A stretch of DNA of 21,434 nucleotides from a virus. Its lineage: Duplodnaviria > Heunggongvirae > Uroviricota > Caudoviricetes. How positions within the stretch are numbered: the stretch's first letter is position 1; each line of letters opens with the position of its first letter. The notes below the pieces were generated by a model that ran no database searches, was not told the origin of the DNA, and worked only from the letters and a program-made list of their open reading frames with translations. The position numbers and the translations under genes are program-made. Of the stretch, positions 1-21,434 are shown one piece after another. The stretch spans positions 1-21,434 of the IMG/VR virus record IMGVR_UViG_2563366996_000005. One strand, written 5' to 3'.

Positions 1-35
1 AGCTTCCCTGCCAGCGTTGCGAGTGCTGTACTCAT
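1..35 (-). CDS. bet: Bet (Red-beta) single-strand annealing recombinase, first ~11 codons only; gene runs off the window start
   Basis: Reverse complement of 1-35 reads ATG AGT ACA GCA CTC GCA ACG CTG GCA GGG AAG = MSTALATLAGK, which I recall as the lambda Bet N-terminus. It sits directly downstream of the gam stop, as in lambda. Confidence 0.7.
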   Translation of the reverse strand, partial: MSTALATLAGK

Positions 36-40
36 CCGTT

Positions 41-457
41 TTATACCTCTGAATCAATATCAACCTGGTGGTGAGCAATGGTTTCAACCATGTACCGGAT
101 GTGTTCTGCCATGCGCTCCTGAAACTCAACATCGTCATCAAACGCACGGGTAATGGCTTTTTTGCTGGCCCCGTGGCGTTGCAAATGATCGATGCATAGC
201 GATTCAAACAGGTGCTGGGGCAGGCCTTTTTCCATGTCGTCTGCCAGTTCTGCCTCTTTCTCTTCACGGGCGATCTGCTGGTAGTGACGCGCCCAGCTCT
301 GAGCCTCAAGACGATCCTGAATGTAATAAGCGTTCATGGCTGAACTCCTGAAATAGCTGTGAAAATATCGCCCGCGAAATGCCGGGCTGATTAGGAAAAC
401 AGGAAAGGGGGTTAGTGAATGCTTTTGCTTGATCTCAGTTTCAGTATTAATATCCAT
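41..457 (-). CDS. gam: Gam, RecBCD inhibitor (long form 138 aa; short GamS form from the internal Met at 337, 98 aa)
   Basis: ORF-track translation [15 protein letters not shown]...[21 protein letters not shown]...[10 protein letters not shown] matches my recollection of lambda Gam. The internal ATG at 337 has an AGGAG-like RBS. Position between bet and kil is lambda-like. Confidence 0.9.
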
Positions 458-555
458 TTTTTATAAGCGTCGACGGCCTCACGAAACATCTTTTCATCGC
501 CAATAAAAGTGGCGATAGTGAATTTAGTCTGGATAGCCATAAGTGTTTGATCCAT
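412..555 (-). CDS. kil: Kil (host cell-division inhibitor), 47 aa
   Basis: The C-terminal 47 residues of track ORF 412..681 ([47 protein letters not shown]) match recalled lambda Kil. The ATG at 553-555 (minus) was located by hand. Confidence 0.85.
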
Positions 556-688
556 TTTTTGGGACTCCTGGCTGATTAAGTATGTCGATAAGGCGTTTCC
601 ATCCGTCACGTAATTTACGGGTGATTCGTTCAAGTAAAGATTCGGAAGGGCAGCCAGCAACAGGCCACCCTGCAATGGCATATTGCAT
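524..688 (-). CDS. cIII: CIII (protects CII from FtsH), 54 aa; overlaps the kil start by 32 nt as in lambda
   Basis: Manual translation of the minus strand from ATG at 686-688 gives [54 protein letters not shown], with an AAGGAG RBS upstream. It is in a different frame from track ORF 412..681, so the track does not list it. Confidence 0.85.
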   Translation of the reverse strand: MQYAIAGWPVAGCPSESLLERITRKLRDGWKRLIDILNQPGVPKNGSNTYGYPD

Positions 689-712
689 GGTGTGCTCCTT
701 ATTTATACATAA

Positions 713-737
713 CGAAAAACGCCTCGAGTGAAGCGTT
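713..737 (-). terminator. Candidate intrinsic terminator between ea10 and cIII (minus strand)
   Basis: Minus-strand hairpin AACGC-(10 nt loop)-GCGTT followed by TTTTTCGTT. Confidence 0.4.
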
Positions 738-760
738 ATTGGTATGCGGTAACGCCGCGC

Positions 761-1129
761 TCAGGCGGCTTTGATAGTCATATCATCTGAATCAAATATT
801 CCTGATGTATCGATATCGGTAATTCTTATTCCTTCGCTACCATCCATTGGAGGCCATCCTTCCTGACCATTTCCATCATTCCAGTCGAACTCACACACAA
901 CACCATATGCATTTAAGTCGCTTGAAATTGCTATAAGCAGAGCATGTTGCGCCAGCATGATTAATACAGCATTTAATACAGAGCCGTGTTTATTGAGTCG
1001 GTATTCAGAGTCTGACCAGAAATTATTAATCTGGTGAAGTTTTTCCTCTGTCATTACGTCATGGTCGATTTCAATTTCTATTGATGCTTTCCAGTCGTAA
1101 TCAATGATGTATTTTTTGATGTTTGACAT
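761..1129 (-). CDS. ea10: Ea10 (lambda early protein of the pL operon), 122 aa
   Basis: Track ORF; translation matches recalled lambda Ea10, and it sits next to cIII as in lambda. Confidence 0.8.
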   Translation of the reverse strand: MSNIKKYIIDYDWKASIEIEIDHDVMTEEKLHQINNFWSDSEYRLNKHGSVLNAVLIMLAQHALLIAISSDLNAYGVVCEFDWNDGNGQEGWPPMDGSEGIRITDIDTSGIFDSDDMTIKAA

Positions 1130-1147
1130 CTATTCATATCCTCACAG

Positions 1148-1175
1148 ATAAAAAATCGCCCTCACATTGGAGGGC
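1148..1175 (-). terminator. Intrinsic terminator upstream of ea10 (minus strand)
   Basis: Minus-strand hairpin GCCCTC-CAATGT-GAGGGC (1158-1175) followed immediately by GATTTTTTAT. Confidence 0.55.
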
Positions 1176-1389
1176 AAAGAAGATTTCCAATAATCAGAAC
1201 AAGTCGGCTCCTGTTTAGTTACGAGCGACATTGCTCAGTGTATTCACTCGTTGGAATGAATACACAGTGCAGTGTTTATTAGTATGCCTGTCTTTTAACC
1301 ACATCAGGCTCGGTGGTTCTCGTGTACCCCTACAGCGAGAAATCGGATAAACTCTATTCACCCCTACAGAGAGCAAAAGAGAAACGCCG

Positions 1390-1971
1390 ATGAACAACTC
1401 ATGGTGGCAGGAACTAATGCATTTTTTCCTGCAAGGAATGACACTTAAACAGTTGATTCATATGCTAATCATCCTGATCATATTGATTATTGTTATGCCT
1501 GTAAGCGTAAAAGAATGGATAAACCTGCATAATCCAGAAATCCTTCCTCATTACTGGATGTATTACATCCTGTTGTTTTGCGTTAGCTATGTGCTTAACG
1601 GCGTTGTTAATTCCGCTTATCACGCTGTGACTGTAAGAATTGAGATATTCGCTGCTCAGAAGCGCAAATCTAAAGAAGAGAAATACGTGCAAGATTTGTT
1701 TGATTCGTTAACTCTTGGAGAAAGAGCGTATTTGGCATTCGCTGTAGCCGCTAATAACCAGCTAAAGACAGAAAAGGGAAGCCCTGAAGCAATCTCATTG
1801 CTCGAAAAAGGGCTTCTTATTCGGGTACCTTCTGCTACTGGATATCCTGAAATCGACCGTTTTGTTATCCCGGAACGCTATAGAAATGAGTGCTACATTA
1901 GGTTTGCTGGGAAGAAAGACAGTCTTATGGATGAACTTATCGCTCAGGATAAGCATGGCAAAAACAAGTAA
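1390..1971 (+). CDS. sieB: SieB-like superinfection exclusion protein, 193 aa, hydrophobic N-terminal segments
   Basis: Track ORF on the opposite strand to the pL genes, between ea10 and N where lambda and P22 carry sieB. Size is right (~192 aa) and the N-terminal region is very hydrophobic (LIHMLIILIILIIVMPV, YYILLFCVSYVLNGVV). Identity to lambda SieB is recalled, not verified. Confidence 0.6.
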   Translation: MNNSWWQELMHFFLQGMTLKQLIHMLIILIILIIVMPVSVKEWINLHNPEILPHYWMYYILLFCVSYVLNGVVNSAYHAVTVRIEIFAAQKRKSKEEKYVQDLFDSLTLGERAYLAFAVAANNQLKTEKGSPEAISLLEKGLLIRVPSATGYPEIDRFVIPERYRNECYIRFAGKKDSLMDELIAQDKHGKNK

Positions 1972-1987
1972 TTAGCAAATGAATTTA

Positions 1988-2296
1988 TCATCTCGCCGTC
2001 AGTTGTTTTGATTTCCGGTAGCCTGCCGCGTAAATAGCTACGTTTGGCAGGCAAACACTTCCACTGCATTCATCTACTTTCTTGCAGCGAAGGCTTCCGA
2101 GTGATATTGCTTTTTCAGAAAGGCTTAACCGCTTTCTCGGGTCTTCCTGAACAGGTTCCTCACTGTCTGTGCCGAAGATCGAATCGATGATGTTGCAGAT
2201 GGAATCACGCTCGATGGCCAGCTTTCTGCGCCGCTCATGACGGCGAGTTTTGGCATTTCCTGCAAATGTTGATTTTCCGTACACGATTACCGTCAT
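1988..2296 (-). CDS. N: N antiterminator, P22 type (gene 24-like), 102 aa
   Basis: Contains the P22 N arginine-rich motif GNAKTRRHERRRKLAIER. The likely start is the internal Met of track ORF 1988..2380 (MTVIVYGK..., ATG at 2294-2296) with a GAGGA RBS. It lies directly downstream of a P22-type boxB. Confidence 0.85.
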   Translation of the reverse strand: MTVIVYGKSTFAGNAKTRRHERRRKLAIERDSICNIIDSIFGTDSEEPVQEDPRKRLSLSEKAISLGSLRCKKVDECSGSVCLPNVAIYAAGYRKSKQLTAR

Positions 2297-2414
2297 GATG
2301 TTTTCCTCATGTGAAATGGCTTTGGTGGTGATGCGCCAGATGCTGATCTTCTGGTTGCTGTCGTTACTGCTGCAATTCACATCACCCCAAACCCATCTCG
2401 TTTGGTATCTGTTC

Positions 2415-2448
2415 GCGCTTTGTCAGCGCATCATCGAAGTTAAAGAGC
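2415..2448 (-). promoter_or_regulatory. nutL: P22-type boxB (2415-2429) plus boxA-like element (2439-2448)
   Basis: Minus-strand sequence GCTCTTTAAC...GCGCTGACAAAGCGC. The 15-nt GCGCUGACAAAGCGC hairpin is the P22 boxB-left sequence as I recall it from the N-peptide/boxB literature. Confidence 0.75.
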
Positions 2449-2704
2449 CTGCCAATCTGTTCCGTTTGGCTGCCAGCGTCCTGCTGATGGCGATTATAAT
2501 GAACCAATAGTTCGATATTATCAAGAACTATAAGTACGAATTGTTTGTGGTTCATTAACTTAATGAGATATGTTTTTGATATGTAAAGGAATTTATTTTT
2601 GTAAAGATTGAAGATTGGTCAGTAGGAGAGAAAGAATTGTTTGCTGGCGTGTTAGTTCGTGGGTTAGCACATGTGCGGATGTTAAATAAGGTAGACGATC
2701 GTGA

Positions 2705-2732
2705 GGAAAAGAAAAACCGGCGCTGAGGCCGG
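2705..2732 (-). terminator. Intrinsic terminator just downstream of the 299-aa gene (minus strand)
   Basis: Minus-strand hairpin CCGGC-CTCAGC-GCCGG (2717-2732) followed by TTTTTCTTTT, 7 nt past the stop codon at 2739-2741. Confidence 0.55.
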
Positions 2733-2738
2733 GTATAA

Positions 2739-3638
2739 TTATTTGATTATTTCTTTTATAAAGACTTCTTTCGGTTGGTATTTTTTATCTGATGATTTGA
2801 GCTGGTACGTTATTGTTATATCAGCACGTACAGAAAATTTACCTGCAAAATCTGATGGGTTTACGTTGGGGCCAAGAACCATATTTACTCTTCGATCTAT
2901 TAATCCAGGGATAACAGCAGCCCAACCTTTCTCTGGATTGTCGAGGTCTAATGCACGGATTTCAACATCAACATCAAAATGATCCTGAGTATATGACTCT
3001 GGTGTGAAGACAACTTCAGTTGGGGCTTTTTTAATGGTTTCAGCGGGAATGGTCACTGTACCACCCCCTGTACCTATGACCATCGTAGATCCTTCGTCTG
3101 CCCTAGCTGGGGCAAGCGTCTTAATGGAACTTTTGGCAAGAGTCTTCTTATTGGTTACCGTGCTTTCTATGATTGCTTGAAGACGGTCAGGTGAAATATT
3201 AGCCTCACCGGCACCAATATTGATGATTGTATTGTTATTTGCTTCAAAGTGGGAGGTGTTGCTTGGAGCCATAGCCTTAGTTGCTAGAACTAAGCCATAT
3301 CCAACCAGACCAATAACAACAGCACCAACGAGAGCGTTTCTCATTTTCCCATTTCCGATCTTTGCATGAGCGCCAGCAAGAAACTTGTCCATTTCTTCTT
3401 GGCTACCAAAGAGGAGTTTAATAACAATATCTTCATAAAGGCTTCCTGCTTCTAATCGCGCAACATGCACCGATATATCAAGGATATTAGCCCCTGTCAG
3501 TTCCTGCAAAACACCTTCTGATTGTTTTGCGATGGCCTCCCACCCTTGAAGGGAGGTAATCACATCTTTGATGCTTACAGGTTCTTTAGTTGAATAATAT
3601 ATGTTTTCGGTAAAGGTTAAAGATAATTCTTGGGACAT
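2739..3638 (-). CDS. Hypothetical 299-aa single-pass membrane protein in the rexAB-equivalent slot (between oL/pL and the repressor, same strand as the repressor)
   Basis: Track ORF. One strongly hydrophobic helix near residues 100-125 (MRNALVGAVVIGLVGYGLVLATKAMA) separates a ~100-aa N-terminal domain from a ~175-aa C-terminal domain. I recognise no family. AT-rich compared with the flanking lambda-like genes. Confidence 0.8.
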   Translation of the reverse strand: MSQELSLTFTENIYYSTKEPVSIKDVITSLQGWEAIAKQSEGVLQELTGANILDISVHVARLEAGSLYEDIVIKLLFGSQEEMDKFLAGAHAKIGNGKMRNALVGAVVIGLVGYGLVLATKAMAPSNTSHFEANNNTIINIGAGEANISPDRLQAIIESTVTNKKTLAKSSIKTLAPARADEGSTMVIGTGGGTVTIPAETIKKAPTEVVFTPESYTQDHFDVDVEIRALDLDNPEKGWAAVIPGLIDRRVNMVLGPNVNPSDFAGKFSVRADITITYQLKSSDKKYQPKEVFIKEIIK

Positions 3639-3767
3639 CCGAGCCCTCGCTGTTTCTTTCGATTTGCTGTGTTAAGCTAATATTTTAATATCCATGTTTC
3701 TGTTTGCTTGCAGTGTGTTTCTCACCACCATCCAAACGTACTGGTTACTAGCTATGTGATGATGAAG

Positions 3768-4475
3768 TCATGAACTTTTCAGCCATTCCCTGGCCTCGAT
3801 GTCATCTAGGTGGCGAGATTGCTTCAGAATACCAGCTACATACTCCACCTTTGCTACTTGATGATAAGGCAACGTTATTGGCCTGTGGTCTTGGTTGATG
3901 CTTGTAAATTGGTATTCTCCGTCTCTGTCATAGCCAAGAACCTTGATCATGTTGTGCCCTTCAATGGTTCTGACAAACACCTCATCACCTGGGAATACTT
4001 TGGTGTTAGGCTCAATGAGTACATATTCTCCTGATTTTATTCTGGGCCACATGCTGTCTCCTTTTACACGAAGACCAAAGGCATCTGGATCATCGCTATA
4101 AATCTTGAGCCACCCATCGCGCTCTTCGGTCATCTCGATGGCACCATCAACACCAAGAATTGCCTCACCAACCACGCGCACTAACCCTTTTTTTAATTTG
4201 CCAACAATTGAAAAAGTATCTTCATCATTCGCTCCATTTAACGAAGTGCCGTGCTGAAGCCAAACAACATCAACGTTTAGAAATTTCGCAAGCGCATTCA
4301 TTTTTTCCTGGCGTGGTAAAGACTCAGCATTAAACCATTTGCTAACGCCTTTGGACGAAAGAGAAAGGGCACGGGCTATGGCCATTCCCCTACCATGTTC
4401 ATCAAGACCAGCTTCTTTACAGGCTTGCGCTAGCCGCTGGGCGAATTCTTTGCGCACTTTTTCATTCTGAACCAT
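3768..4475 (-). CDS. cI: CI-like prophage repressor: N-terminal HTH domain plus C-terminal LexA/S24-type autocleavage domain, 235 aa
   Basis: Track ORF. The C-terminal domain carries the S24 serine motif GDSMWP and a downstream Lys. It is divergent from cro across a short operator region. Not lambda, 434 or P22 repressor by recall. Confidence 0.85.
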   Translation of the reverse strand: MVQNEKVRKEFAQRLAQACKEAGLDEHGRGMAIARALSLSSKGVSKWFNAESLPRQEKMNALAKFLNVDVVWLQHGTSLNGANDEDTFSIVGKLKKGLVRVVGEAILGVDGAIEMTEERDGWLKIYSDDPDAFGLRVKGDSMWPRIKSGEYVLIEPNTKVFPGDEVFVRTIEGHNMIKVLGYDRDGEYQFTSINQDHRPITLPYHQVAKVEYVAGILKQSRHLDDIEAREWLKSS

Positions 4476-4553
4476 GAGTACGATACTAAAGCACTTGCAA
4501 AAACTTTCAGTTCAACCATAATGCGTACTGAAAGTACGAAAAAGGACATTCCT
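4476..4553. promoter_or_regulatory. Right operator / pRM-pR region between repressor and cro
   Basis: A 78-bp divergent intergenic region containing the perfect palindrome CGTACTgaaAGTACG (about 4523-4537) and a second AGTACGA copy next to the repressor start. One more AGTACGA copy lies in the presumed oL region near 2543. Confidence 0.5.
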
Positions 4554-4781
4554 ATGCAAAATCTTGATGAGCCGATTAAAGGTGTCGGCATCCCTGAAGT
4601 TGCGAAGGCTTGTGGAGTTAGCGAAAGGGCTGTCTATAAGTGGCTCAAAAACGGCTTCCTCCCTAAGACTGAGTTTTTTGGGAAAACGAAATACGCATCA
4701 AAAATCGAAGAGATTTCTGGTGGCAAATATCAAGCAAGCGAAATGCTTGAAATAAGCAAAAAGAACCTTCTGGCAGCATAA
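4554..4781 (+). CDS. cro: Cro-like HTH regulator, ~75 aa from the internal Met
   Basis: Track ORF 4521..4781. The internal Met (MQNLDEPIKG...) has an AAGGA RBS, while the upstream ATG does not. Contains an HTH-like segment (IPEVAKACGVSERAVYKWLKNG). Coordinates are taken from the ORF track. Confidence 0.7.
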   Translation: MQNLDEPIKGVGIPEVAKACGVSERAVYKWLKNGFLPKTEFFGKTKYASKIEEISGGKYQASEMLEISKKNLLAA

Positions 4782-4788
4782 GTAACAC

Positions 4789-4823
4789 CGCTCTTTATCA
4801 ATCTGCACCGCCGACAACGCGGT
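4789..4823 (+). promoter_or_regulatory. nutR: boxA CGCTCTTTA (4789-4797) plus P22-type boxB ACCGCCGACAACGCGGT (4807-4823)
   Basis: Canonical boxA followed by a hairpin that matches the P22 boxB-right sequence as I recall it. It sits between cro and cII, where nutR and tR1 belong. Confidence 0.7.
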
Positions 4824-4887
4824 AACTAATTAAGAACTCATCGAAAGATGCGTATTAGTGATTATTTACCTATGGAAATAGTAAGAA

Positions 4888-5187
4888 ATGGAACAAACAA
4901 ATTACAGCAAACTATCACAGCGCGACGTTGATCGCGCAGAAACAGATTTACTTATCAACCTGTCAACGCTTACTCAGCGCGGTCTGGCAAAGATGATTGG
5001 CTGTCATGAATCGAAGATAAGCAGAACAGACTGGAGGTTTATAGCTTCGGTCTTGTGTGCTTTTGGCATGGCATCAGACATCAGTCCGATTAGCAGAGCT
5101 TTTAAGTATGCGCTTGATGAAATCACCAATAAAAAACGCCCGGTGTGCAAGACCGAGCGTTCTGAACAAATCCAGATGGAGTTCTGA
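4888..5187 (+). CDS. cII: CII-like transcriptional activator, 99 aa
   Basis: Track ORF. The C-terminus TNKKRPVCKTERSEQIQMEF closely matches the lambda CII C-terminus (TNKKRPAATERSEQIQMEF). The N-terminal half is divergent, consistent with a different immunity type. Confidence 0.8.
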   Translation: MEQTNYSKLSQRDVDRAETDLLINLSTLTQRGLAKMIGCHESKISRTDWRFIASVLCAFGMASDISPISRAFKYALDEITNKKRPVCKTERSEQIQMEF

Positions 5188-5219
5188 GGTCATTACTGGA
5201 TCTATCAACAGGAGTCATT

Positions 5220-6119
5220 ATGACAAATACAGCAAAAATACTCAACTTCGGCAGAGGTAACTTTGCCGGACAGGAGCGTAATGTGGCAGATCTCGATGAT
5301 GGTTACGCCAGACTATCAAATATGCTGCTTGAGGCTTATTCGGGCGCAGATCTGACCAAGCGACAGTTTAAAGTGCTGCTTGCCATTCTGCGTAAAACCT
5401 ATGGGTGGAATAAACCAATGGACAGAATCACCGATTCTCAACTTAGCGAGATTACAAAGTTACCTGTCAAACGGTGCAATGAAGCCAAGTTAGAACTCGT
5501 CAGAATGAATATTATCAAGCAGCAAGGCGGCATGTTTGGACCAAACAAAAACATCTCAGAATGGTGCATCCCTCAAAACGAGGGAAAATCCCCTAAAACG
5601 AGGGATAAAACATCCCTCAAATTGGGGGATTGCTATCCCTCAAAACAGGGGGACACAAAAGACACTATTACAAAAGAAAAAAGAAAAGATTATTCGTCCG
5701 AGAATTCTGGCGAATCCTCTGACCAGCCAGAAAACGATCTTTCTGTGGTTAAACCGGATGCTGCAATTCAGAGCGGCAGTAAGTGGGGAACAGCAGAAGA
5801 CCTGACCGCCGCAGAGTGGATGTTTGACATGGTGAAGACTATCGCACCATCAGCCAGAAAACCGAATTTTGCTGGGTGGGCTAACGATATCCGCCTGATG
5901 CGTGAACGTGACGGACGTAACCACCGCGACATGTGCGTGCTGTTCCGCTGGGCCTGCCAGGACAACTTCTGGTCCGGTAACGTGCTGAGTCCGGCCAAAC
6001 TCCGCGACAAGTGGACCCAGCTCGAAATCAACCGGAACAAGCAACAGGCTGGCGTGACAGTCGGCAAACCAAAACTCGACCTGACAAACACTGACTGGAT
6101 TTACGGGGTGGATCTATGA
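5220..6119 (+). CDS. O: Replication initiator O, 299 aa
   Basis: Track ORF; translation matches recalled lambda O and the gene contains the ori iterons. Confidence 0.9.
   Translation: MTNTAKILNFGRGNFAGQERNVADLDDGYARLSNMLLEAYSGADLTKRQFKVLLAILRKTYGWNKPMDRITDSQLSEITKLPVKRCNEAKLELVRMNIIKQQGGMFGPNKNISEWCIPQNEGKSPKTRDKTSLKLGDCYPSKQGDTKDTITKEKRKDYSSENSGESSDQPENDLSVVKPDAAIQSGSKWGTAEDLTAAEWMFDMVKTIAPSARKPNFAGWANDIRLMRERDGRNHRDMCVLFRWACQDNFWSGNVLSPAKLRDKWTQLEINRNKQQAGVTVGKPKLDLTNTDWIYGVDL
5568..5700. repeat. ori-lambda: four ~19-bp iterons (ATCCCTCAAAACGAGGGA-like) followed by an AT-rich region
   Basis: Four direct repeats are visible: tccctcaaaacgaggga, tcccctaaaacgaggga, atccctcaaattggggga, atccctcaaaacaggggga. 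They are followed by an A-rich stretch (caaaagaaaaaagaaaag), all inside O. Confidence 0.85.
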
Positions 6120-6817
6120 AAAACATCGCCGCACAGATGGTTAACTTTGACCGTGAGCAGATGCGTCGGATCGCCAACAACATGCCGGAACAGTACGACG
6201 AAAAGCCACAGGTACAGCAGGTAGCGCAGATCATCAACGGTGTGTTCAGCCAGTTACTGGCAACTTTCCCGGCGAGCCTGGCTAACCGTGACCAGAACGA
6301 ACTGAACGAAATCCGCCGCCAGTGGGTTCTGGCTTTCCGGGAAAACGGGATCACCACAATGGAACAGGTTAACGCAGGAATGCGCGTAGCCCGTCGGCAG
6401 AATCGACCATTCCTGCCATCCCCCGGACAGTTTGTAGCCTGGTGCCGGGAAGAAGCATCCGTTATTGCCGGACTACCAAACACCAGCGAGCTGGTTGATA
6501 TGGTTTACGAGTATTGCCGGAAGCGTGGCCTGTATCCGGATGCAGAGTCTTATCCGTGGAAATCAAACGCGCACTACTGGCTGGTTACCAACCTGTATCA
6601 GAACATGCGGGCCAATGCGCTTACTGATGCGGAATTACGGCGCAAGGCTGCCGATGAACTGACTTGTATGACCGCGCGAATTAACCGTGGTGAGGCGATA
6701 CCTGAACCAGTAAAACAACTTCCTGTCATGGGCGGTAGACCTCTAAATCGTGCACAGGCTCTGGCGAAGATCGCAGAAATCAAAGCGAAGTTCGGACTGA
6801 AAGGAGCAACTGTATGA
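6116..6817 (+). CDS. P: Replication protein P (DnaB helicase loader), 233 aa
   Basis: Track ORF; translation matches recalled lambda P. ATGA start/stop overlap with O. Confidence 0.9.
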   Translation: MKNIAAQMVNFDREQMRRIANNMPEQYDEKPQVQQVAQIINGVFSQLLATFPASLANRDQNELNEIRRQWVLAFRENGITTMEQVNAGMRVARRQNRPFLPSPGQFVAWCREEASVIAGLPNTSELVDMVYEYCRKRGLYPDAESYPWKSNAHYWLVTNLYQNMRANALTDAELRRKAADELTCMTARINRGEAIPEPVKQLPVMGGRPLNRAQALAKIAEIKAKFGLKGATV

Positions 6818-7116
6818 CGGGCAAAGAGGCAATTATTCATTACCTGGGGACGCATAAGAGCTTCTGTGCGCAGGACGTTGCTGCGGTAACAGGCGCAACA
6901 GTAACCAGTATAAATCAGGCTGCGGCTAAAATGGCACGGGCAGGAATCTTGGTCGTTGATGGTAAGGTCTGGCGAACGGTGTATTACCGGTTCGCTACCA
7001 GGGAAGAACGGGAAGGAAAGGTGAGCACGAATCTGATTTTCAAGGAGTGTCGCCAGAGTGCCGCGATGAAACGAGTGTTGGCAGTGTATGGAGATATGAA
7101 CTTAAACTTGCTGTGA
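6814..7116 (+). CDS. ren: Ren, 100 aa, with a C-terminus that diverges from lambda Ren
   Basis: Track ORF. MTGKEAIIHYLGTH...FKECRQSAAMKRVL matches recalled lambda Ren. The last ~10 residues differ (…AVYGDMNLNLL), marking a mosaic junction. Confidence 0.8.
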   Translation: MTGKEAIIHYLGTHKSFCAQDVAAVTGATVTSINQAAAKMARAGILVVDGKVWRTVYYRFATREEREGKVSTNLIFKECRQSAAMKRVLAVYGDMNLNLL

Positions 7117-7364
7117 CGGTTTTCATCGGTAACACACCATGTAATCTAGCAGTCAGCTTAGAAATAGGAGCGGCAGTTAAAGATTTTTCAGTTAGTAGAA
7201 AATTACTGTTATTGCAGGGATCTAATCACCGGAGAGTCGTTCCATTTGTCTTATGATTACCTGAAGTCCGTTAGTTCGTTGGTAATCACCGTTTTTGTTA
7301 GAGAAGTAAGCATCGCTGACAAAATATTCTCAACGATGCCTGCTTTATTGCTACTACAAATTAA

Positions 7365-8761
7365 TTAAATTGCATCTGCAAACTCTGGGGTTTTTCGCTC
7401 AGGTATAATTGATGAGTTGCTGTTGTCACTTTTTTTATTTTCATGATTACGAATAGCCAATGACTCATTAAAGTCTTTTGCGACTGCTGTCTCAATAAAT
7501 TCAATTTCTGAATCAGAGTGTTTTTTAACAGCTTCTTTGATCTCATCCAGAGTAACATAGAAAAACTCTTTTCTACGATTTACAAGATTGACTCTCTTTT
7601 TATCGAAGACATCATGTAGTTTTTTTTCTAATGATGGAGCGTCCTCCGAATAAATCATGGCATGTACATCAAAAATAAAAGGAACAGATGCATCACCGAG
7701 CTCATTTACACGGTCTTGCGGATCAAGACGTCGTGTCATGCCTATTTTATAAACATTCTCCCCAAAAGAACCTATGTTCGAAATAATATAAACATGACCT
7801 TGTTTGGTTTGTTGTGCCATGGATAATGCTCTTTGATGCTTTGATTCAGCCTGCGACAAACTCTGTTCTAGTTCGGCAATGCGATTTTCGAGGCGCTGCT
7901 TCATGTCACCAGTAACTTTTTCCATTTCCTTTCTTGCAGCTTCAATTGCTTTTTTATAACGGCGCTCTTCTGCCTCTGCGTCTTGCATGGCCTTTTCTAT
8001 TTCTCGTTGTGCACGCTCCTCCTCTCTCATTTGTGCCCTTATTTCTGCCTGTTCTTCTTTTTCTTTCTGTTTTTGCTCACGATATTCATGGGTAAGCCAC
8101 AATTCCTCAAGTTTTTTATTGAGGTATTTAGTGTTTATATATATGTGATTTTGCTCGTTTAGTTTATTTATGGCCTCAAATGCCTTTGTGATGCGTTCTT
8201 CCATTTTAGTGATGTTTTTCCACGTGCAATTGCTAATTGCAGCATCACATTCATTATTAAATGCTCTAGTAGTTAGCCTGATATTTCTGTCTGTCATTTT
8301 TTTACCCTCTGCTCGAGAGCCTTCAACAGTCCATTGGGTTGTACAATATACTGCGCCAGAGTGGGTTTTATCCCGCAGCATTAATTTCTGTTCATCCCTG
8401 ATGGATTTTATTTTGTTTTTAAATTGCTCTGAATCTTCAAAATTAAAATGAGGTTCGTAAAATCCTAGTTCGGCTAGCTCAACATCTTCTGAATAAATAG
8501 AAATTTGCCTTACTAGTTTATCATATATTTCTTTCTTCTCTTTATAAGTTCTTCTTAGCTCTTGGATTTGTTTATTGATACCATCCATTTTTTCAATGGT
8601 GTTTGTTAGTTCATTATTGGCATTTTCTTTTACTTTTAGGGATTCTTCTTTTATTATGGAGCATTCTTGCTCTGTTTTCTCAATAAGCTTCTTACATTCT
8701 TCTTCTACATTAAAATAATCTGCAAAGCGAGATTTGTATTCTTCATTTTTTTGATTGCTAT
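7365..8761 (-). pseudogene. 3' portion of an IS1-split gene: coiled-coil region plus C-terminal T5orf172/GIY-YIG-like domain (longest ATG-initiated remnant ORF 7365..8588, 407 aa)
   Basis: Track ORF 7365..8588. Its frame stays open upstream for another 57 sense codons with no start codon until it enters IS1 at 8762. The C-terminal motif GHVYIISNIGSFGENVYKIGMTRRLDPQDRVNELG...PFIFDVHAMIY...LEKKLHDVF...RKEFFYV is T5orf172/GIY-YIG-like by recall. The central region is a long charged coiled coil. Confidence 0.75.
8753..8761. repeat. IS1 target-site duplication, left copy (GATTGCTAT)
   Basis: This 9-bp sequence directly abuts the IS1 end at 8762 and is identical to 9530-9538. Confidence 0.9.
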
Positions 8762-8776
8762 GGTAATGACTCCAAC

Positions 8777-9280
8777 TTATTGATAGTGTTTTATGTTCAG
8801 ATAATGCCCGATGACTTTGTCATGCAGCTCCACCGATTTTGAGAACGACAGCGACTTCCGTCCCAGCCGTGCCAGGTGCTGCCTCAGATTCAGGTTATGC
8901 CGCTCAATTCGCTGCGTATATCGCTTGCTGATTACGTGCAGCTTTCCCTTCAGGCGGGATTCATACAGCGGCCAGCCATCCGTCATCCATATCACCACGT
9001 CAAAGGGTGACAGCAGGCTCATAAGACGCCCCAGCGTCGCCATAGTGCGTTCACCGAATACGTGCGCAACAACCGTCTTCCGGAGCCTGTCATACGCGTA
9101 AAACAGCCAGCGCTGGCGCGATTTAGCCCCGACGTATCCCCACTGTTCGTCCATTTCCGCGCAGACGATGACGTCACTGCCCGGCTGTATGCGCGAGGTT
9201 ACCGACTGCGGCCTGAGTTTTTTAAATGGCGGAAAATCGTGTTGAGGCCAACGCCCATAATGCGGGCGGTTGCCCGGCAT
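8777..9280 (-). CDS. insB: IS1 InsB (transposase catalytic part, made as InsAB' by a -1 frameshift)
   Basis: Track ORF; translation matches recalled IS1 InsB. Confidence 0.9.
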
Positions 9281-9474
9281 CCAACGCCATTCATGGCCAT
9301 ATCAATGATTTTCTGGTGCGTACCGGGTTGAGAAGCGGTGTAAGTGAACTGCAGTTGCCATGTTTTACGGCAGTGAGAGCAGAGATAGCGCTGATGTCCG
9401 GCGGTGCTTTTGCCGTTACGCACCACCCCGTCAGTAGCTGAACAGGAGGGACAGCTGATAGAAACAGAAGCCAC
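9199..9474 (-). CDS. insA: IS1 InsA (transposition repressor / N-terminal part of the transposase)
   Basis: Track ORF; translation [40 protein letters not shown]... matches recalled IS1 InsA. Confidence 0.9.
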
Positions 9475-9529
9475 TGGAGCACCTCAAAAACACCATCATA
9501 CACTAAATCAGTAAGTTGGCAGCATCACC

Positions 9530-9538
9530 GATTGCTAT
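9530..9538. repeat. IS1 target-site duplication, right copy (GATTGCTAT)
   Basis: Identical 9-mer to 8753-8761, directly abutting the other IS1 end. Confidence 0.9.
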
Positions 9539-9644
9539 CACTTAATTCTAATTGTATTTTTTTGATGCGTTTGATTGCAGCTATATAAAGAACAAGAACA
9601 ACCAATAAAAATATGATTGCAAGTAATAGAGGAGTTTGAGTCAT
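9530..9644 (-). pseudogene. 5' portion of the IS1-split gene: start codon plus N-terminal transmembrane anchor
   Basis: Manual minus-strand translation from ATG at 9642-9644 (AAGGAA RBS 8 nt upstream, in-frame stop 5 codons upstream) gives MTQTPLLLAIIFLLVVLVLYIAAIKRIKKIQLELS... Joined across IS1 with one TSD copy removed, it runs in frame into the 3' portion. Confidence 0.7.
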
Positions 9645-9952
9645 TCGTGCTATTCCTTACGGACAATTTAAGACGTTTTGTATTAAATCCTGTTCAATGT
9701 GTATGCGGGTGATTGCTACCGCTTACAATCTTCATAATTATCAGTTAGATAGACTCGCTAGTAAATAATTTCATTTTTTGCAATATTCTTATTGAATATT
9801 TCAATTTATGAAATGAACTCTTTATCCTTTCAAGGTGAAAGGTTTCTTCTTCGGAAATATTTGCTCTCGTGTGACGTATAAAGACCTTTGATTTTCAAAA
9901 ATCAGTAGGGAATAATATAGTTACTGTCGGCCTGAACACCCGGTGGTGGGGT

Positions 9953-10050
9953 TGCGCTAAACGGGGACGTTTATGCGCACACACAATCCAAACTCTCATC
10001 TCCATTCACAGATGCAGAAATGCACCTACGATTTTTTACATTCGGTGTTT
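9953..10050 (+). repeat. Direct repeat R1 (~98 bp, ~90% identical to R2)
   Basis: tgcgctaaacggggacgtttatgcgcacacacaatccaaactctcatctccattcacagatgcagaaatgcacctacgattttttacattcggtgttt aligns base-for-base with 11887-11984, with about 10 mismatches. Confidence 0.85.
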
Positions 10051-10279
10051 TACTTCGACAGCCAGAATTGGGAGTCTCTATTCGTCTGGCGGCTAAAGGT
10101 GATATGGAAATCGTTATGTTTTGGCCTGAGGTAGTTGTAACTGTTGTAGCAGCTATGGATGTGATCATCATGGTGTCCATTTACTGGGGTTGACGACATG
10201 ATTTATCCGGCGCTATATTCTGTGCGTTGCCGCAAAATCGGCACACGGGATTGGCGTCCCGGGATACTACTCAACGCAT

Positions 10280-10300
10280 ACCGCGTTAAGCGGTTTTTTT
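10280..10300 (+). terminator. Candidate intrinsic terminator (short stem)
   Basis: ACCGC-GTTAA-GCGGT followed by seven T. Confidence 0.4.
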
Positions 10301-10456
10301 GTGCGCTAAGCACGGCTATGCCCAAATTATGGTGGGCTGTGTGAGGGCTTCTTCGGAAGCGCCGGGTTTGAGTAGCCGGTTACGCCAACCTTACACAGTT
10401 CACCACCAGTCGATTGGCGTCGTTGGTGGTGATGGTTAACCTGATGAGGTGATACT

Positions 10457-11065
10457 ATGACTACTCAATTAGCATTCCACAAAACGACGTTTACCCCGAT
10501 TTGCCACAATAACAGAATTTGGCTTACTGCCACTGAAGTTGGTTTAGCACTGGAATATGCGGACGATAAAGCAGTTCAGCGCATTTACTCTCGGCACTCA
10601 GATGAATTCACAGATATGATGACAAGGGTGGTCAAAGTGACCACCCCTCGTGGAATGCAGGAGTCTCGAGTATTTAGCCTTCGCGGAGCCCATTTGATCG
10701 CCATGTTTGCTCGTACTCCTGTGGCCAAAGAATTCCGCCGCTGGGTTCTGGATATTCTCGATCGAGAAGTTCAACAATCCCCAATCACAAAACAATTCAC
10801 TGATAACGAACTTTGCACACTCGCCTGGTTATGGCGAGCAAGTGATACGATGTTAACCGCCTGCCAGAACGTTACGCCCCTTCTTCAGGTCGCAGAGCAT
10901 CGCGAAGCAGGTAGATTCACTTCAATCGAACAAGAATATCCTCGGATACTCAACAGGGCGCGAGAAATCCTTGCCAGAGAAACGGCGCATGTAAAATTCC
11001 AACCGTGGCAGGATGATAAGTGGAGTCGTGTGTTACCATATTTCCGTCAGAATCTGTTGCAATAA
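10457..11065 (+). CDS. Bro-N domain protein (antirepressor-like / Rha-like regulator), 202 aa
   Basis: Track ORF. The N-terminal ~100 aa has the Bro-N pattern (…FHKTTFTPICHNNRIWLTATEVGLALEY…RVFSLRGAHLIAMFARTPVAKEFRRWVLDIL) by recall. A terminator follows. Confidence 0.7.
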   Translation: MTTQLAFHKTTFTPICHNNRIWLTATEVGLALEYADDKAVQRIYSRHSDEFTDMMTRVVKVTTPRGMQESRVFSLRGAHLIAMFARTPVAKEFRRWVLDILDREVQQSPITKQFTDNELCTLAWLWRASDTMLTACQNVTPLLQVAEHREAGRFTSIEQEYPRILNRAREILARETAHVKFQPWQDDKWSRVLPYFRQNLLQ

Positions 11066-11085
11066 AGTCACTAGTTAGAAATACT

Positions 11086-11125
11086 GCCAGCATTCTGCGA
11101 TGACGGAAGTGCTGGCATTTTTTTT
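11086..11125 (+). terminator. Intrinsic terminator after the Bro-N gene
   Basis: GCCAGCA-(17 nt loop)-TGCTGGC followed by ATTTTTTTT. Confidence 0.5.
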
Positions 11126-11300
11126 GGTAATGTGCGAGTCCATTTCATAAAATACGGGTACTGGAACTGGACGATATAATCTAAAAGATACCATTATCAG
11201 TAGCATTAAAATCGCTATGTGCCGATACGGATATAAATTATATTGATTGTTCACATACCTTATTGGATATTACTGAGGGGTGTTTATATAAGGTGTAACG

Positions 11301-11810
11301 ATGATGTGGAACTTTGACAGTGCCGACTTAAGTGCAATAGCAGCAGGCATTTCTGCGTTTGGCACATTAGCCGCAGCGGGGTCGGCGCTTGCAAGTTGGT
11401 GCACGTCAAAAAAAGCGCTGCAGCTACAAAATAGAGTTTACCTTTATGAGTCTTTAAAGGCTTGCGCTGAGAGAGCCAATTCATCAGCTAAAGATAAGCG
11501 CGGATCTGAATGGAGCGTTAATGATGCAGCGGATATCATCAGGTGCCTAGTACGGGCGATGGAGCTCATCAAGCAGGATAGCCAGCAGAAAGAAGGTAAT
11601 CAGGCATTAATGTTGAAACAGTACTTTGTTAATCTGCTAATAATGGAACTGTACGAGGAAGTTCATAACGGTGATGCGGCTGATTCTGTTTTTAAAAGTA
11701 CGGAACCTACACAAGTACTTGATAACTTATGGAGCAAATGGCAGGAGGCTATAGCTTTTTTTGATATTTGGAATTACCCAGTTGCGACTGAGGAAGACTT
11801 GGCAGACTAA
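11301..11810 (+). CDS. Hypothetical 169-aa protein with an N-terminal hydrophobic segment
   Basis: Track ORF. It is preceded by ~170 bp of AT-rich sequence and a GAGGGG RBS-like element. The N-terminus LSAIAAGISAFGTLAAAGSALASW is hydrophobic. I recognise no family. Confidence 0.65.
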   Translation: MMWNFDSADLSAIAAGISAFGTLAAAGSALASWCTSKKALQLQNRVYLYESLKACAERANSSAKDKRGSEWSVNDAADIIRCLVRAMELIKQDSQQKEGNQALMLKQYFVNLLIMELYEEVHNGDAADSVFKSTEPTQVLDNLWSKWQEAIAFFDIWNYPVATEEDLAD

Positions 11811-11886
11811 TTTTCAGCACATTTGATTTCCAATAATCAACCAGCCATAATCATGCCATTGGAGCTTGAACAACTCCGGTGACTTC

Positions 11887-11984
11887 TGCGCTAAACGGGG
11901 ACGTTTATGCGCACATACAATCCAAACTCTCTTCTCCCTTCACAGATGCAGAGATGCACCTGCGATTTTTTGCATCCAGCGTTT
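11887..11984 (+). repeat. Direct repeat R2 (~98 bp), immediately upstream of ninB
   Basis: See R1. Each copy begins a short ORF (R1 9973..10134, R2 11907..12008) with a conserved N-terminus MRT(H/Y)NPNS(H/L)L(H/P)SQMQ(K/R)CT(Y/C)DFLH. Confidence 0.85.
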
Positions 11985-12004
11985 GACCTCTGCGGAGGTG
12001 AAGC

Positions 12005-12460
12005 GTGAACCTCCCACAAGACGGCATCAAATTGCATCGTGGTAACTTCACCGCTATCGGCCAGCAGATCCAGCCTTATCTGGAGGAAGGCAAATGCTTT
12101 CGCATGGTGCTTAAACCGTGGCGTGAGAAACGCAGTCTTTCCCAGAATGCACTCAGCCACATGTGGTACAGCGAAATCAGTGAATACCTCATCAGCAGGG
12201 GTAAAACGTTCGCCACTCCAGCTTGGGTAAAAGATGCTCTCAAACACACATATCTCGGTTATGAAACCAAAGACCTGGTTGATGTCGTAACCGGTGAGAT
12301 CACCACTATCCAGTCGTTACGCCATACCTCCGATCTTGATACCGGAGAGATGTATATCTTCCTGTGTAAGGTTGAAGCCTGGGCGGTGAATATTGGCTGC
12401 CACCTGACTATTCCGCAGAGCTGCGAGTTCCAGCTGCTGCGCGACAAGCAGGAGGCGTAA
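12005..12460 (+). CDS. ninB: NinB-like recombination protein (lambda Orf family), 151 aa, GTG start
   Basis: Track ORF. Family assigned by recall from similarity to lambda NinB (for example around [16 protein letters not shown]) and by its position at the start of the nin region. Confidence 0.65.
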
Positions 12461-12630
12461 TGGCTACACCGCTTATTCGTGTCATGAACGGACACATCTA
12501 CAGAGTACCAAATCGTCGTAAGCGTAAACCTGAGCTGAAGCCATCCGAAATACCAACACTGCTCGGATATACCGCCAGCTTGGTTGATAAAAAATGGTTG
12601 CGACTGGCAGCAAGGAGGAATCATGGCTGA
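12460..12630 (+). CDS. Small nin-region protein (NinD-like), 56 aa
   Basis: Manual translation from ATG 12460 (TAATG overlap with the ninB stop): [56 protein letters not shown]. Below the ORF-track size cutoff. NinD assignment is by recall. Confidence 0.55.
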   Translation: MATPLIRVMNGHIYRVPNRRKRKPELKPSEIPTLLGYTASLVDKKWLRLAARRNHG

Positions 12631-12913
12631 TTTGAGAAAAGCAGCGCGTGGTCGGGAATGCCAGGTAAGAATCCCTGGCGTATGTAATGGCAATTCTGAG
12701 ACGTCTGTACTGGCACATATCCGGCTGGCTGGATTGTGCGGTACCGGTATCAAACCGCCAGACCTGATTGCCACCATTGCATGTTCTGCCTGCCACGACG
12801 AAATCGACCGCCGCACGCATTTTGTTGACGCTGGATATGCAAAAGAATGCGCGCTGGAAGGTATGGCGAGAACGCAGGTTATCTGGCTGAAAGAGAGGGT
12901 AATTAAGGCGTGA
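12623..12913 (+). CDS. ybcO: YbcO-like DUF1364 protein (Cys-rich, putative nuclease), 96 aa from the internal Met
   Basis: Track ORF 12584..12913. [23 protein letters not shown]... matches recalled E. coli DLP12 YbcO. The ATG at 12623 has an AGGAGGAA RBS. Confidence 0.7.
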
Positions 12914-13272
12914 ATACTTACCACATCACACTACCCTGGCCTCCGAGCAATAATCGCTATTACCGCCATAATCGCGGGCGCACGCACGTCAGCGCAGAGG
13001 GGCAGGCATACCGCGATAACGTCGCCCGAATCATTAAAAACGCAATGCTGGATATCGGCCTGGCGATGCCTGTGAAAATCCGCATTGAGTGCCACATGCC
13101 GGATCGCCGTCGCCGTGACCTGGATAATCTGCAAAAAGCCGCTTTTGACGCACTCACCAAAGCAGGTTTCTGGCTGGATGATGCTCAGGTCGTTGATTAC
13201 CGCGTTGTGAAGATGCCTGTTACCAAAGGTGGGAGGCTGGAACTGACCATCACCGAAATGGGGAATGAATGA
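12910..13272 (+). CDS. rusA: RusA Holliday-junction resolvase, 120 aa
   Basis: Track ORF; translation matches recalled RusA ([22 protein letters not shown]...). Confidence 0.9.
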
Positions 13273-13409
13273 TGTTTGAGTTTAATATGGCAGAACTTCT
13301 TCGCCACCGCTGGGGGCGTCTGCGCTTATATCGTTTCCCCGGCTCTGTTTTGACCGATTACCGAATACTGAAGAATTACGCCAAAACACTGACAGGAGCA
13401 GGAGTATGA
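13269..13409 (+). CDS. Small protein (YlcG-like), 46 aa
   Basis: Manual translation [50 protein letters not shown]-coupled to the rusA stop. Below the track cutoff. Confidence 0.5.
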
Positions 13410-13494
13410 AGTCAGAGATAACAATCAACTAATACTGTTTTGCTGATTTTTGCTTGTAATTGGCGTTCTGGTCTGAGTTTTGTGGAGTAAGTTG

Positions 13495-13878
13495 ATGCGT
13501 GATATTCAGATGGTTCTTGAGCGTTGGGGAGCGTGGGCGGCTAATAATCATGAAGATGTGACCTGGTCGTCCATTGCCGCCGGTTTTAAGGGATTAATTC
13601 CTTCAAAAGTAAAATCTCGCCCGCAATGTTGTGACGATGACGCGATGATCATTTGCGGGTGCATGGCCCGTCTGAAAAAGAACAACAGCGATTTGCACGA
13701 TTTATTAGTAGATTATTATGTAGTCGGTATGACATTCATGTCACTGGCAGGTAAGCATTGCTGCTCTGATGGTTATATCGGGAAAAGGTTACAAAAGGCT
13801 GAGGGCATAATTGAAGGGATGTTAATGGCATTAGATATCCGGTTAGAGATGGATATCGTTGTTAATAACTCTAATTAA
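13495..13878 (+). CDS. Q: Q-like late antiterminator (short form, QuuD-like), 127 aa
   Basis: Track ORF 13480..13878. The internal ATG at 13495 has a GGAG RBS. Cys-rich ([20 protein letters not shown]). It sits in the Q position upstream of the lysis genes. DLP12 QuuD similarity is recalled. Confidence 0.75.
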
Positions 13879-13899
13879 TATGCCAATTGTTTACTAAAA

Positions 13900-13929
13900 A
13901 TTATTAAAAATGGGGCGTTGAGACGCCCC
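13900..13929 (-). terminator. Intrinsic terminator downstream of the porin gene (minus strand)
   Basis: Minus-strand hairpin GGGGCG-TCTCAA-CGCCCC followed by ATTTTTAATAATTTTT. Confidence 0.5.
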
Positions 13930-14018
13930 CAAAAATAAAGGGTAATATATAACAGAAGGTTTATATAGTTAGAAGCAAGGTTGTGCTTCTAAAGGAAGTG
14001 GCTTGAGGGAGCCACTTA

Positions 14019-14057
14019 TATGTTGGGGAGGCAACGCCTCCCGCAACATATCTTTTT
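14019..14057 (+). terminator. Plus-strand intrinsic terminator ~140 nt downstream of Q (candidate tR'-like terminator of a short late-promoter RNA)
   Basis: Hairpin GGGAGGC-AAC-GCCTCCC with flanking tatgttg/caacata extension, followed by TCTTTTT. A possible promoter TTGAGA-N19-TAATAT lies at ~13918-13948. Confidence 0.45.
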
Positions 14058-14067
14058 CGTAATCAGA

Positions 14068-17040: not shown

Positions 17041-17074
17041 GATAAGAGCCAGTCATTACAAATACCAGGATTTA

Positions 17075-19027: not shown

Positions 19028-21434
<2,407 letters not shown>

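Follow-up and report, generated by a model that had tools for sequence, protein, structure and literature searches.

The early regulatory region at positions 1988 to 4823 of a 21,434-nucleotide stretch of viral DNA (the window) combines an N antiterminator and nut sites of the P22 type with a repressor, Cro and operators of the 933W type. With high confidence, this is the immunity region of a temperate lambdoid prophage of E. coli, put together from exchangeable modules, each of a known kind. The identities and placement of its parts, the breakpoints between them and the coupling of N type to nut type at the population level are direct observations. Judged from sequence comparison, the N/imm933W/nutR combination is a common, standing and already known module and not a newly arisen recombinant.

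The mapping of breakpoints by alignment, which the earlier note had called for, yields a segment map with lambda, P22-like and 933W blocks:

1-1280: lambda, 98.9% identity
1285-2491: P22-like (sieB 89%, 5' part of N 86%, nutL-containing part of the N leader 90%)
2492-2560: OL/PL of 933W, 88%
2739-3638: no match among the references
3740-4781: 933W, 97-99%
about 4789-4825: P22-like nutR, 95% over 37 bp
4888-5122: 933W, 97%
5123 onwards: lambda, 94-98% (96.1% over 5123-7096)
18293-21434: lambda 1-3143, 98.3%

Read from left to right, the early part of the window is thus a fine-scale patchwork of lambda, P22-like sieB-N-nutL, 933W OL-tM, a gene for a 299-residue protein, 933W cI-cro, a P22-like nutR island, a 933W-lambda chimeric cII and lambda O-P. 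The gam-ea10, O-P-ren and cos-Nu1-A flanks are 95-99% identical to lambda (O, 98.2%; P, 95.3%), so that identity to lambda is at least 95% for the recombination, replication and packaging genes alike; the earlier claim of lambda-like flanking recombination, replication and head genes is borne out. The wider notion of a lambda backbone holds for these three blocks but fails for 7100-17900 (nin region, Q, porin, lysis). A lambda-type nin/Q/lysis region is absent from the window: the lambda matches in 7097-17900 are all short and weak (Rz, 89% over 248 bp; 17216-17880, 82%), and the genes in this stretch include DLP12-like quuD, essD and rrrD and an ompC-like porin.

The elements of the region and its borders are the following:

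1390-1971, plus strand: sieB (superinfection exclusion B), P22-like
1988-2296, minus strand: N, 102 residues, with its ATG at 2296 and GAGG just before it
2415-2448, minus strand: nutL, with boxA GCTCTTTAA (2440-2448) and boxB GCGCTGACAAAGCGC (2415-2429)
2496-2538, minus strand: PL region, with the PL promoter TTGATA-17-CATTAT at 2524-2496 (promoter scan) and the 933W-type operators OL1 (2500-2514) and OL2 (2524-2538)
2717-2732, minus strand: tM-type intrinsic terminator, CCGGCCTCAGCGCCGG followed by a T-run, at the end of the cI (PRM) operon
2739-3638, minus strand: orf299, a 299-residue cargo gene in the rexAB/stk position, predicted single-pass membrane protein
3768-4475, minus strand: cI, 933W-type repressor
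4468-4538: OR region with PRM and PR, comprising OR3 (4468-4482), OR2 (4500-4514), OR1 (4524-4538) and PR, TTGCAA-16-CATAAT, at 4495-4522
4554-4781, plus strand: cro, 933W-type
4789-4823, plus strand: nutR, with boxA CGCTCTTTA (4789-4797) and boxB ACCGCCGACAACGCGGT (4807-4823)
4888-5187, plus strand: cII, chimeric, 933W-like in its 5' part (4888-5122) and lambda-like in its 3' part (5123-5187)
4897-4910, minus strand: CII-box-like TTGC-N6-TTGT (pattern search)
5133-5163, minus strand: oop terminator

The repressor and Cro had been described as neither lambda nor P22, and the alignments agree: CI shares 20-21% identity with both P22 C2 and lambda CI, and Cro 30% with its P22 and 21% with its lambda counterpart. 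Their type is imm933W as judged by sequence. CI, which has a helix-turn-helix and an S24 autocleavage domain (Pfam HTH_3, Peptidase_S24), matches 933W CI at 232 of 235 residues (98.7%), and Cro matches at all 75 residues (99.1% of nucleotides). OR1, OR2 and OR3 are identical to the 933W annotation, the two substitutions in the 131-bp OR alignment falling outside the operators. At the left, the OL/PL region is 88% identical to that of 933W, OL1 and OL2 each fit the operator pattern CGTAC-N5-GTWCR with one mismatch, and the promoters and tM terminator lie where 933W annotates them. P22 homology stops at 2491, the aligned position of the annotated +1 of P22 PL. To its left, sieB resembles that of P22 (84% of residues, 89% of nucleotides; Pfam SieB, E 3e-25), in contrast to just 20% amino acid identity to lambda sieB, and the order sieB-24-nutL-PL is that of P22. 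On the cII side, the CII-box pattern search returned 4 matches against 2.95 expected, a number that is not statistically distinctive; PRE is placed tentatively, by position.

The proposal that N carries the P22 arginine-rich motif (ARM) proved exact: residues 14-31, GNAKTRRHERRRKLAIER, are identical to the motif of P22 gp24 (18/18). N is 70% identical to gp24 overall, with only 2 differences in residues 1-42, and is assigned to its family by Pfam N_peptide PF25694 (139.7 bits against a cut-off of 27.9, spanning residues 1-102) and PHROG 271 (E 5.5e-43). By sequence, the protein is a chimera of a P22-type N-terminus with the ARM (residues 1-42), a divergent middle and a C-terminus whose last 22 residues are identical to those of 933W N. 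At the DNA level, identity to P22 gene 24 is 86% over the 5' 126 nucleotides and identity to 933W N is 93% over the 3' 71 nucleotides, while the middle of the window's N is unrelated to gene 24. The C-terminal module is common to the N proteins of 933W, HK97 and P22; as a whole, 933W N is only 29% identical to the window's N and has a different ARM, GNSRSRRRERLKAKA. N opens the PL operon: PL (2524-2496), nutL (2448-2415) and the N start codon follow one another in this order on the minus strand. A plus-strand open reading frame at 2250-2510 (“FIG00644188 hypothetical protein” in 1H12 records) was rejected as probably not a real gene, since it runs antisense to the start, leader and nutL of N. 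A search of PDB sequences with N gave a single match at the level of noise (E 0.24), and the P22 N-peptide/boxB structure was not among the results.

Both boxB hairpins had been read as P22 sequences, and comparison with the sites annotated in P22 (NC_002371) confirms it: nutL is identical at 34 of 34 positions and nutR at 32 of 34, both nutR differences lying in the spacer between boxA and boxB. The nutR boxA matches the CGCTCTTTA consensus at 9/9 positions, and the nutL boxA is the same as that of P22. Each boxB has a single copy in the window, oriented with its early transcript (PL or PR), and is predicted to form the small hairpin expected of it; such hairpins are too small for an informative fold z-score, and the evidence is therefore exact sequence identity rather than energy. 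The nutR site forms a P22-like island of about 35-80 bp between 933W-like cro and cII, at a position where 933W and HK97 have different, longer nutR sites. That of 933W differs from the window's in the boxB stem, in boxA (CGCTATTTT instead of CGCTCTTTA) and in the spacer (about 19 versus 9 nucleotides).

The biochemical activities of all of these parts are predicted from homology; together, they would work in the following manner. In the lysogen, the 933W-type CI presumably occupies OR1-3 and OL1-2, keeping PR and PL shut, and is itself made from PRM, which probably also transcribes the downstream orf299 up to tM. SOS-induced autocleavage of CI would allow PL and PR to fire. The PL transcript would carry nutL about 40 nucleotides from its start, followed by the N coding sequence, and the PR transcript would carry nutR 8 nucleotides past the cro stop codon. 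N may then bind the two P22-type boxB hairpins through its arginine-rich motif and, together with host NusA, NusB, NusE and NusG at boxA, render RNA polymerase resistant to termination, enabling expression of the delayed-early genes. N, nutL and nutR would thus constitute one specificity set that straddles the repressor/operator set and is inherited independently of it.

The coupling of N to its sites was surveyed in 77 IMG/VR metagenomic or prophage loci that share the 3' end of a 933W-type cro, picked by an exact 32-mer. N type and nutR type are concordant in all 65 loci typable for both, 32 having the P22 ARM with a P22-type nutR and 33 the 933W ARM with a 933W-type nutR; the loci are not independent, since many represent one prophage sampled from several isolates (35 cI-cro haplotypes), and, given also the selection by an exact 32-mer, the complete concordance exaggerates how many independent events there were. 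The concordance fits selection for cognate N-nut pairs. Alternatively, the N and nut types found with imm933W may be functionally interchangeable, and their association may reflect linkage or shared ancestry rather than selection. Several similarities point in this direction: the boxB of 933W nutL is the same 15-mer as that of P22 (15/15), the loop of 933W nutR is also GACAAA, the two ARMs share the pattern G-N-[AS]-[KR]-[TS]-R-R-x-E-R, and both N proteins end in the same 22 residues. However, the two classes have no fixed difference in the 1,042-bp cI-cro module, and the distance between them (2.6%, with a minimum of 0.4%) is about that within the P22-type class (2.4%), so that little should hinder homologous recombination between N and nutR; yet none of the 65 loci is discordant. 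The nutR types also differ in stem, boxA and spacer, as described above, and a locus with a third ARM (L018) has a third boxB shared by its nutL and nutR. Interchangeability seems unlikely. Since the nutL boxB is identical and the 933W ARM resembles that of P22, the two N types may nevertheless cross-react, which would blur the notion of a specificity set.

Comparison with type genomes alone gives the region the look of a multi-parent hybrid, and the earlier note had implied a recombinant immunity and antitermination specificity, that is, a recent and unique hybrid whose parents resembled P22, 933W and lambda; every single record, moreover, falls short of 80% coverage of the window. However, 1988-4823 is collinear with, and 100% identical to, a single known phage, an outcome that the earlier note had named as contrary to its reading: Escherichia phage 1H12 (NC_049947; Jouyvirus), together with ten near-identical relatives (Lambda_2E9, 4B5, 2G7a, ev087, ev245 and others), 11 deposited phage genomes in all. 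Beyond these, 113 complete E. coli genome records contain 1285-5230 at 99% identity or more (100% in 25 of 25 among the matches listed), and about 50 Stx2a-converting phages combine P22-type N, 933W-type cI-cro and P22-type nutR at about 96-97%. This recurrence marks the arrangement as a common standing module, and the unusual parts of the window lie elsewhere, in a prophage-type junction somewhere within 5653-7096 and an IS1 insertion. A recent, unique origin is refuted by the identical phage and E. coli copies and can be given almost no credence. What stands is that the region is a true mosaic relative to the type phages, with P22-type antitermination uncoupled from immunity; the novelty does not stand, and the contrast in specificity is softened by the nutL boxB that 933W has in common with P22 and by the shared C-terminal module of N.

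The patchwork could also have arisen as an assembly or binning artefact, by chimeric assembly of several co-resident prophages. Several E. coli genomes hold the two halves of the window in separate prophages on the same chromosome (in CP070048, at 38 kb and 689 kb), so that the full window could conceivably be a collapsed assembly, joined through the O-P-ren genes common to both. Against this, 1-7096 is contiguous at 99.2% identity with an isolated phage, 1H12, in the collinear order gam, kil, ea10, sieB, N, orf299, cI, cro, cII, O, P and ren, and identical copies of the immunity region occur in many closed genomes. 1H12 diverges to the right of 7096, where the window has a PD-Lambda-1 gene with IS1 and a different nin/Q/porin/lysis region, and covers only 44% of the window; any artefact would be confined to the junction right of about 5653-7096 and so lie outside the immunity region. 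For 1988-4823, both an artefact, which is very improbable, and chance resemblance were rejected in favor of the standing module.

That lambdoid phages swap immunity and N/nut specificities as modules is textbook knowledge; in one classical case, lambda and 434 have N/nut in common and differ in immunity. In phages L and P22, another such case, the N-terminus of gp24 and both boxBs are conserved, N specificity residing in the N-terminal part of the protein, and the immC regions differ, the repressor module having been swapped independently (PMC8022706). The principle is the same in the window, with different hosts and repressor types. P22 itself differs in its unrelated repressor, Cro and operators and in having replication genes 18/12 in place of lambda O/P; 933W, besides its own N and longer nutR, has six iterons in its O gene and carries stk genes as cargo where the window has orf299. 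In the literature searched, nothing bearing directly on the pairing of a P22-type N with 933W immunity came up.

The single unexplained part of the region is orf299, situated between cI and tM in the slot taken by rexAB in lambda and stk in 933W. It is probably co-transcribed with cI, as suggested by position, strand and the shared terminator. No relative was found in Pfam, PADLOC or among solved folds; related genes are found across the Enterobacterales and outside that order (56 clusters, with identity as low as 29%), and P4-like and Mu-like elements carry the gene as cargo too. Tentatively, its product could be a hitherto undescribed membrane protein, expressed in the lysogen, that excludes or aborts superinfecting phages, and the gene would merit inclusion in a screen for defence genes.

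As a discovery, the region is of little importance, the exact module having been deposited and annotated many times. Its repressor type predicts homoimmunity with the Stx2 phage 933W, which may interfere with lysogeny or induction of Stx phages in strains that carry the prophage. The survey provides a clean illustration from natural variation that N and both nut sites stay matched even though the repressor module between them exchanges freely, nutR being carried as an island of mere tens of bases.

The early control region of the window (1988-4823) is of a known kind, and even a known sequence: its full length recurs at 100% identity in 11 phage records (Escherichia phage 1H12, as NC_049947 and LR595850, Lambda_2E9, 4B5, 2G7a, ev087, ev245, ev203, ev058, ev110 and ev066), and 1H12 is collinear with window 1-7096 at 99.2% identity. 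The module 1285-5230 is covered to at least 80% in 150 of 5,426 complete E. coli genomes; at least 99% identity is reached in 113 records, with 100% in all 25 among the matches listed. About 50 Stx2a-converting phages have this N-terminal part of N (97% identical over aa 1-73) in combination with a 933W-type cI-cro and a P22-type nutR. A newly arisen recombinant is rejected, as the identical sequence is present in 11 phage records and many E. coli genomes. The earlier note had read the interval as recombinant in immunity and antitermination specificity, which stands in so far as the region is a patchwork when compared with the classical type phages; against it, given the 100% identity over 1988-4823, the whole interval is collinear with a single known phage (1H12). 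The observation is confirmed, the interpretation partly supported. A published precedent for the principle, N/nut in common and immunity different, is the pair of phages L and P22, which have the N-terminal 75 residues of gp24 (the P22 N, gene 24) in common, apparently identical nutL and nutR boxBs, and functionally interchangeable genes 24, but different immC (PMC8022706).

An ORF listing and a reading of window 1700-5200 yielded the following two-strand anatomy.

Anatomy of the control region
1390-1971, plus strand: sieB
1988-2296, minus strand: N, 102 aa, start MTVIVYGKSTFAGNAKTRRHERRRKLAIERD, GAGG before it
2415-2448, minus strand: nutL
2496-2538, minus strand: PL and two operators
2717-2732, minus strand: intrinsic terminator, aligned with the 933W tM terminator
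2739-3638, minus strand: orf299, a 299-aa ORF
3768-4475, minus strand: cI
4468-4538: OR3, OR2 and OR1 with PRM and PR
4554-4781, plus strand: cro
4789-4823, plus strand: nutR
4888-5187, plus strand: cII
after cII: O and P

An 86-aa ORF at 2250-2510 (plus strand) overlaps the start of N, its leader and nutL in antisense; it is labelled "FIG00644188 hypothetical protein" in records of 1H12 and its near-identical relatives and is probably a spurious gene call.

The flanks are lambda-like, as had been noted: identity to lambda is 98.9% over 1-1280 (gam, kil, cIII, ea10), 96.1% over 5123-7096 (3' cII, O, P, ren) and 98.3% over 18293-21434 (cos, Nu1, A, W, start of B). A lambda cIII thermoregulator element at 643-701 (minus strand; Rfam, 88.5 bits) is consistent with the lambda-like left arm. 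Between the flanks, the closest reference changes repeatedly.

Segments and closest references
1-1280: gam, kil, cIII, ea10; lambda 98.9% (933W 98.7%)
between 1280 and 1285: ral and orf28 of lambda absent, ~340 bp (lambda 34056-34395), at the ea10/sieB promoter junction
1285-1389: sieB promoter; P22 96%, lambda 94%
1390-1971: sieB; P22 89%
1988-2058: N 3' end; 933W 93%, HK97 87%
2063-2170: N middle; no match among references
2171-2296: N 5' end; P22 86%
2387-2491: nutL-bearing leader; P22 90%
2492-2560: PL/OL; 933W 88%
2739-3638: orf299; no match among references
3740-4781: cI, OR, cro; 933W 97-99%
about 4789-4825: nutR; P22 95%
4888-5122: cII 5' part; 933W 97%
5123 onwards: cII 3' part, O, P, ren; lambda 94-98%
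5163-5133, minus strand: oop terminator, inside the lambda-like part of cII
5245-5217, minus strand: oop promoter, start of the lambda-like part

The P22 match at nutL stops exactly at PL +1 as annotated in P22, where TCAGCAGGACGC is common to the window, P22 and 933W. cII is itself chimeric, switching near 5123 from a 933W-like part (the first ~78 residues) to a lambda-like C-terminal tail (KKRPVCKTERSEQIQMEF).

The repressor and Cro had been described as neither lambda nor P22, and their global identity to the CI and Cro of both phages is indeed 20-30%. CI is identical at 232 of 235 residues to that of the Shiga-toxin phage 933W, Cro at 75 of 75, and the cI-cro intergenic region differs from 933W by 2 substitutions (131 bp compared), neither of which touches any of the three annotated 933W OR operators. 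On the left, two sites with the OR-type half-site pattern (2500-2514 and 2524-2538) overlap the promoter TTGATA-17-CATTAT in an OL/PL stretch 88% identical to 933W. Because CI, Cro, OR, OL/PL and tM all match 933W, the immunity module is assigned by sequence to imm933W.

A match to Pfam N_peptide (PF25694) spans the whole N protein (139.7 bits; cut-off 27.9), and the arginine-rich motif (ARM) of N equals that of P22 gp24 at 18 of 18 residues. When the best ungapped match to each nut feature annotated in the P22 reference was sought in the window, nutL was identical at 34 of 34 positions over boxA, spacer and boxB, and nutR at 32 of 34, with both mismatches in the spacer; the P22 character claimed for N and both nut sites is thus borne out. 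Each boxB occurs once in the window, on the strand of its own transcript. Both are predicted to fold as hairpins; energy z-scores are uninformative at such small size, so the evidence for the boxBs is their identity to P22. N is a three-part chimera, with a 933W-like 3' end, a middle without reference match and a P22-like 5' end. Among IMG/VR loci with a 933W-type cro, L010 joins the P22 ARM and the same middle region to a lambda-type C-terminus, and L018 (IMGVR_UViG_2585427777_000028) joins a third ARM, DDNARNRRRARRQAQREQ, to a lambda-type C-terminus of the L010 kind, its nutL and nutR having one common third boxB, TCCCGCCGAAATGCGGGA. In such loci ARM, middle and C-terminus (lambda-like or 933W/P22-like) assort independently. 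Since 933W and HK97 have a longer, different sequence at the nutR position, the nutR of the window is a P22-type island of a few tens of bases, flanked by cro and cII of another lineage.

The anatomy is read directly, and homology suggests how it may work. In the lysogen, the 933W-type CI, made from PRM, would repress PR and PL through OR and OL. orf299, downstream of cI on the same strand and ending just before tM, is probably part of the lysogenic cI transcript, like rexAB in lambda and stk in 933W. Upon induction, the S24 domain of CI would autocleave, and PL and PR would fire. nutL lies ~40 nt into the PL transcript and nutR 8 nt past the cro stop codon; the N ARM would bind both boxBs and, with Nus factors at boxA, yield a termination-resistant RNA polymerase.

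The cargo in the rexAB/stk slot, orf299, is a predicted membrane protein for which searches found neither a Pfam family (a DUF1206 match stayed below threshold) nor a PADLOC model nor a fold relative. It belongs to PHROG 4506 (function unknown); its homologues form 56 clusters, all "hypothetical", from Salmonella, Pectobacterium, Yersinia, Serratia, Kluyvera, Edwardsiella, Citrobacter and Lonsdalea, with others outside these genera at identities as low as 29%. Conserved motifs include GSL (65-67) and ANNNTIINIGAGE (133-145). In the AlphaFold2 model (pLDDT 81, pTM 0.67), an alpha/beta domain at the N-terminus is followed by a long helix (101-123) that coincides with the hydrophobic stretch, then by a linker of low confidence and a C-terminal domain rich in beta structure. 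Homologues also lie beside a P4-type primase (Serratia) and within Mu-like prophages (an Accumulibacter-type genome), contexts that mark orf299 as mobile cargo; that it serves in exclusion or defence is a reasonable guess rather than a finding.

Among phage and complete E. coli genome records, none covers at least 80% of the 21.4-kb window. Positions 5653-21434, minus IS1, match another prophage type at 99.4-99.9% (e.g. E. coli S1-CAM-04-C), which has a different immunity region, and both types occupy separate sites in several genomes (e.g. CP070048, CP090319, CP030768). This pattern points to a recombination across the O-P-ren genes common to both types, or possibly to an assembly join, with the junction within 5653-7096. 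An IS1-like, IS1-sized insertion of 768 bp (8762-9529; 9-bp target duplication) interrupts a DUF4041/T5orf172 defence gene (PADLOC call PD-Lambda-1, E 8e-190). The defence gene is probably inactive, since about 94 N-terminal residues of the 500-aa protein that is intact in S1-CAM-04-C are missing from the residual ORF (7365-8588, minus strand; 407 aa). Further right lie the isrK RNA (10228-10300, plus strand; Rfam 58.7 bits) and the C4 antisense RNA (10325-10410, plus strand; 74.8 bits), directly followed by a 202-aa ORF (10457-11065), whose counterpart in the matching E. coli prophage is annotated "P22AR C-terminal domain-containing protein" (antirepressor-like). A 360-aa ORF (14068-15150, minus strand), with a Q-like antiterminator on one side and the lysis genes on the other, carries the annotation of an OmpC/OmpD-type porin in matching records and is likely a lysogenic-conversion gene.

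The coupling of N to nut was surveyed by scanning IMG/VR with an exact 32-mer from the 3' end of 933W-type cro, which gave 77 loci, each typed by the nutR that follows cro and by the closest N ARM preceding it. A P22 ARM accompanies a P22-type nutR in 32 loci and a 933W ARM a 933W-type nutR in 33, with no discordant pair (the remainder of the 77 being truncated or having minor ARM variants), a concordance limited by the loci being non-independent and picked by an exact word. The nutL boxBs of 933W and P22 are one and the same 15-mer, and the two ARMs are alike, so the 933W- and P22-type systems may cross-react partially. The intervening cI-cro module (1,042 bp, 35 haplotypes) has no fixed differences between the classes; the distance between them is 2.6% on average (minimum 0.4%), close to the 2.4% within the P22-type class. 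N and cro are separated by 16 different distances among P22-type loci and by 14 among 933W-type loci, which marks the cargo slot as hypervariable. Exchange in the N-nutR region is evidently frequent, yet no mismatched pair was seen, as predicted by selection for cognate pairs.
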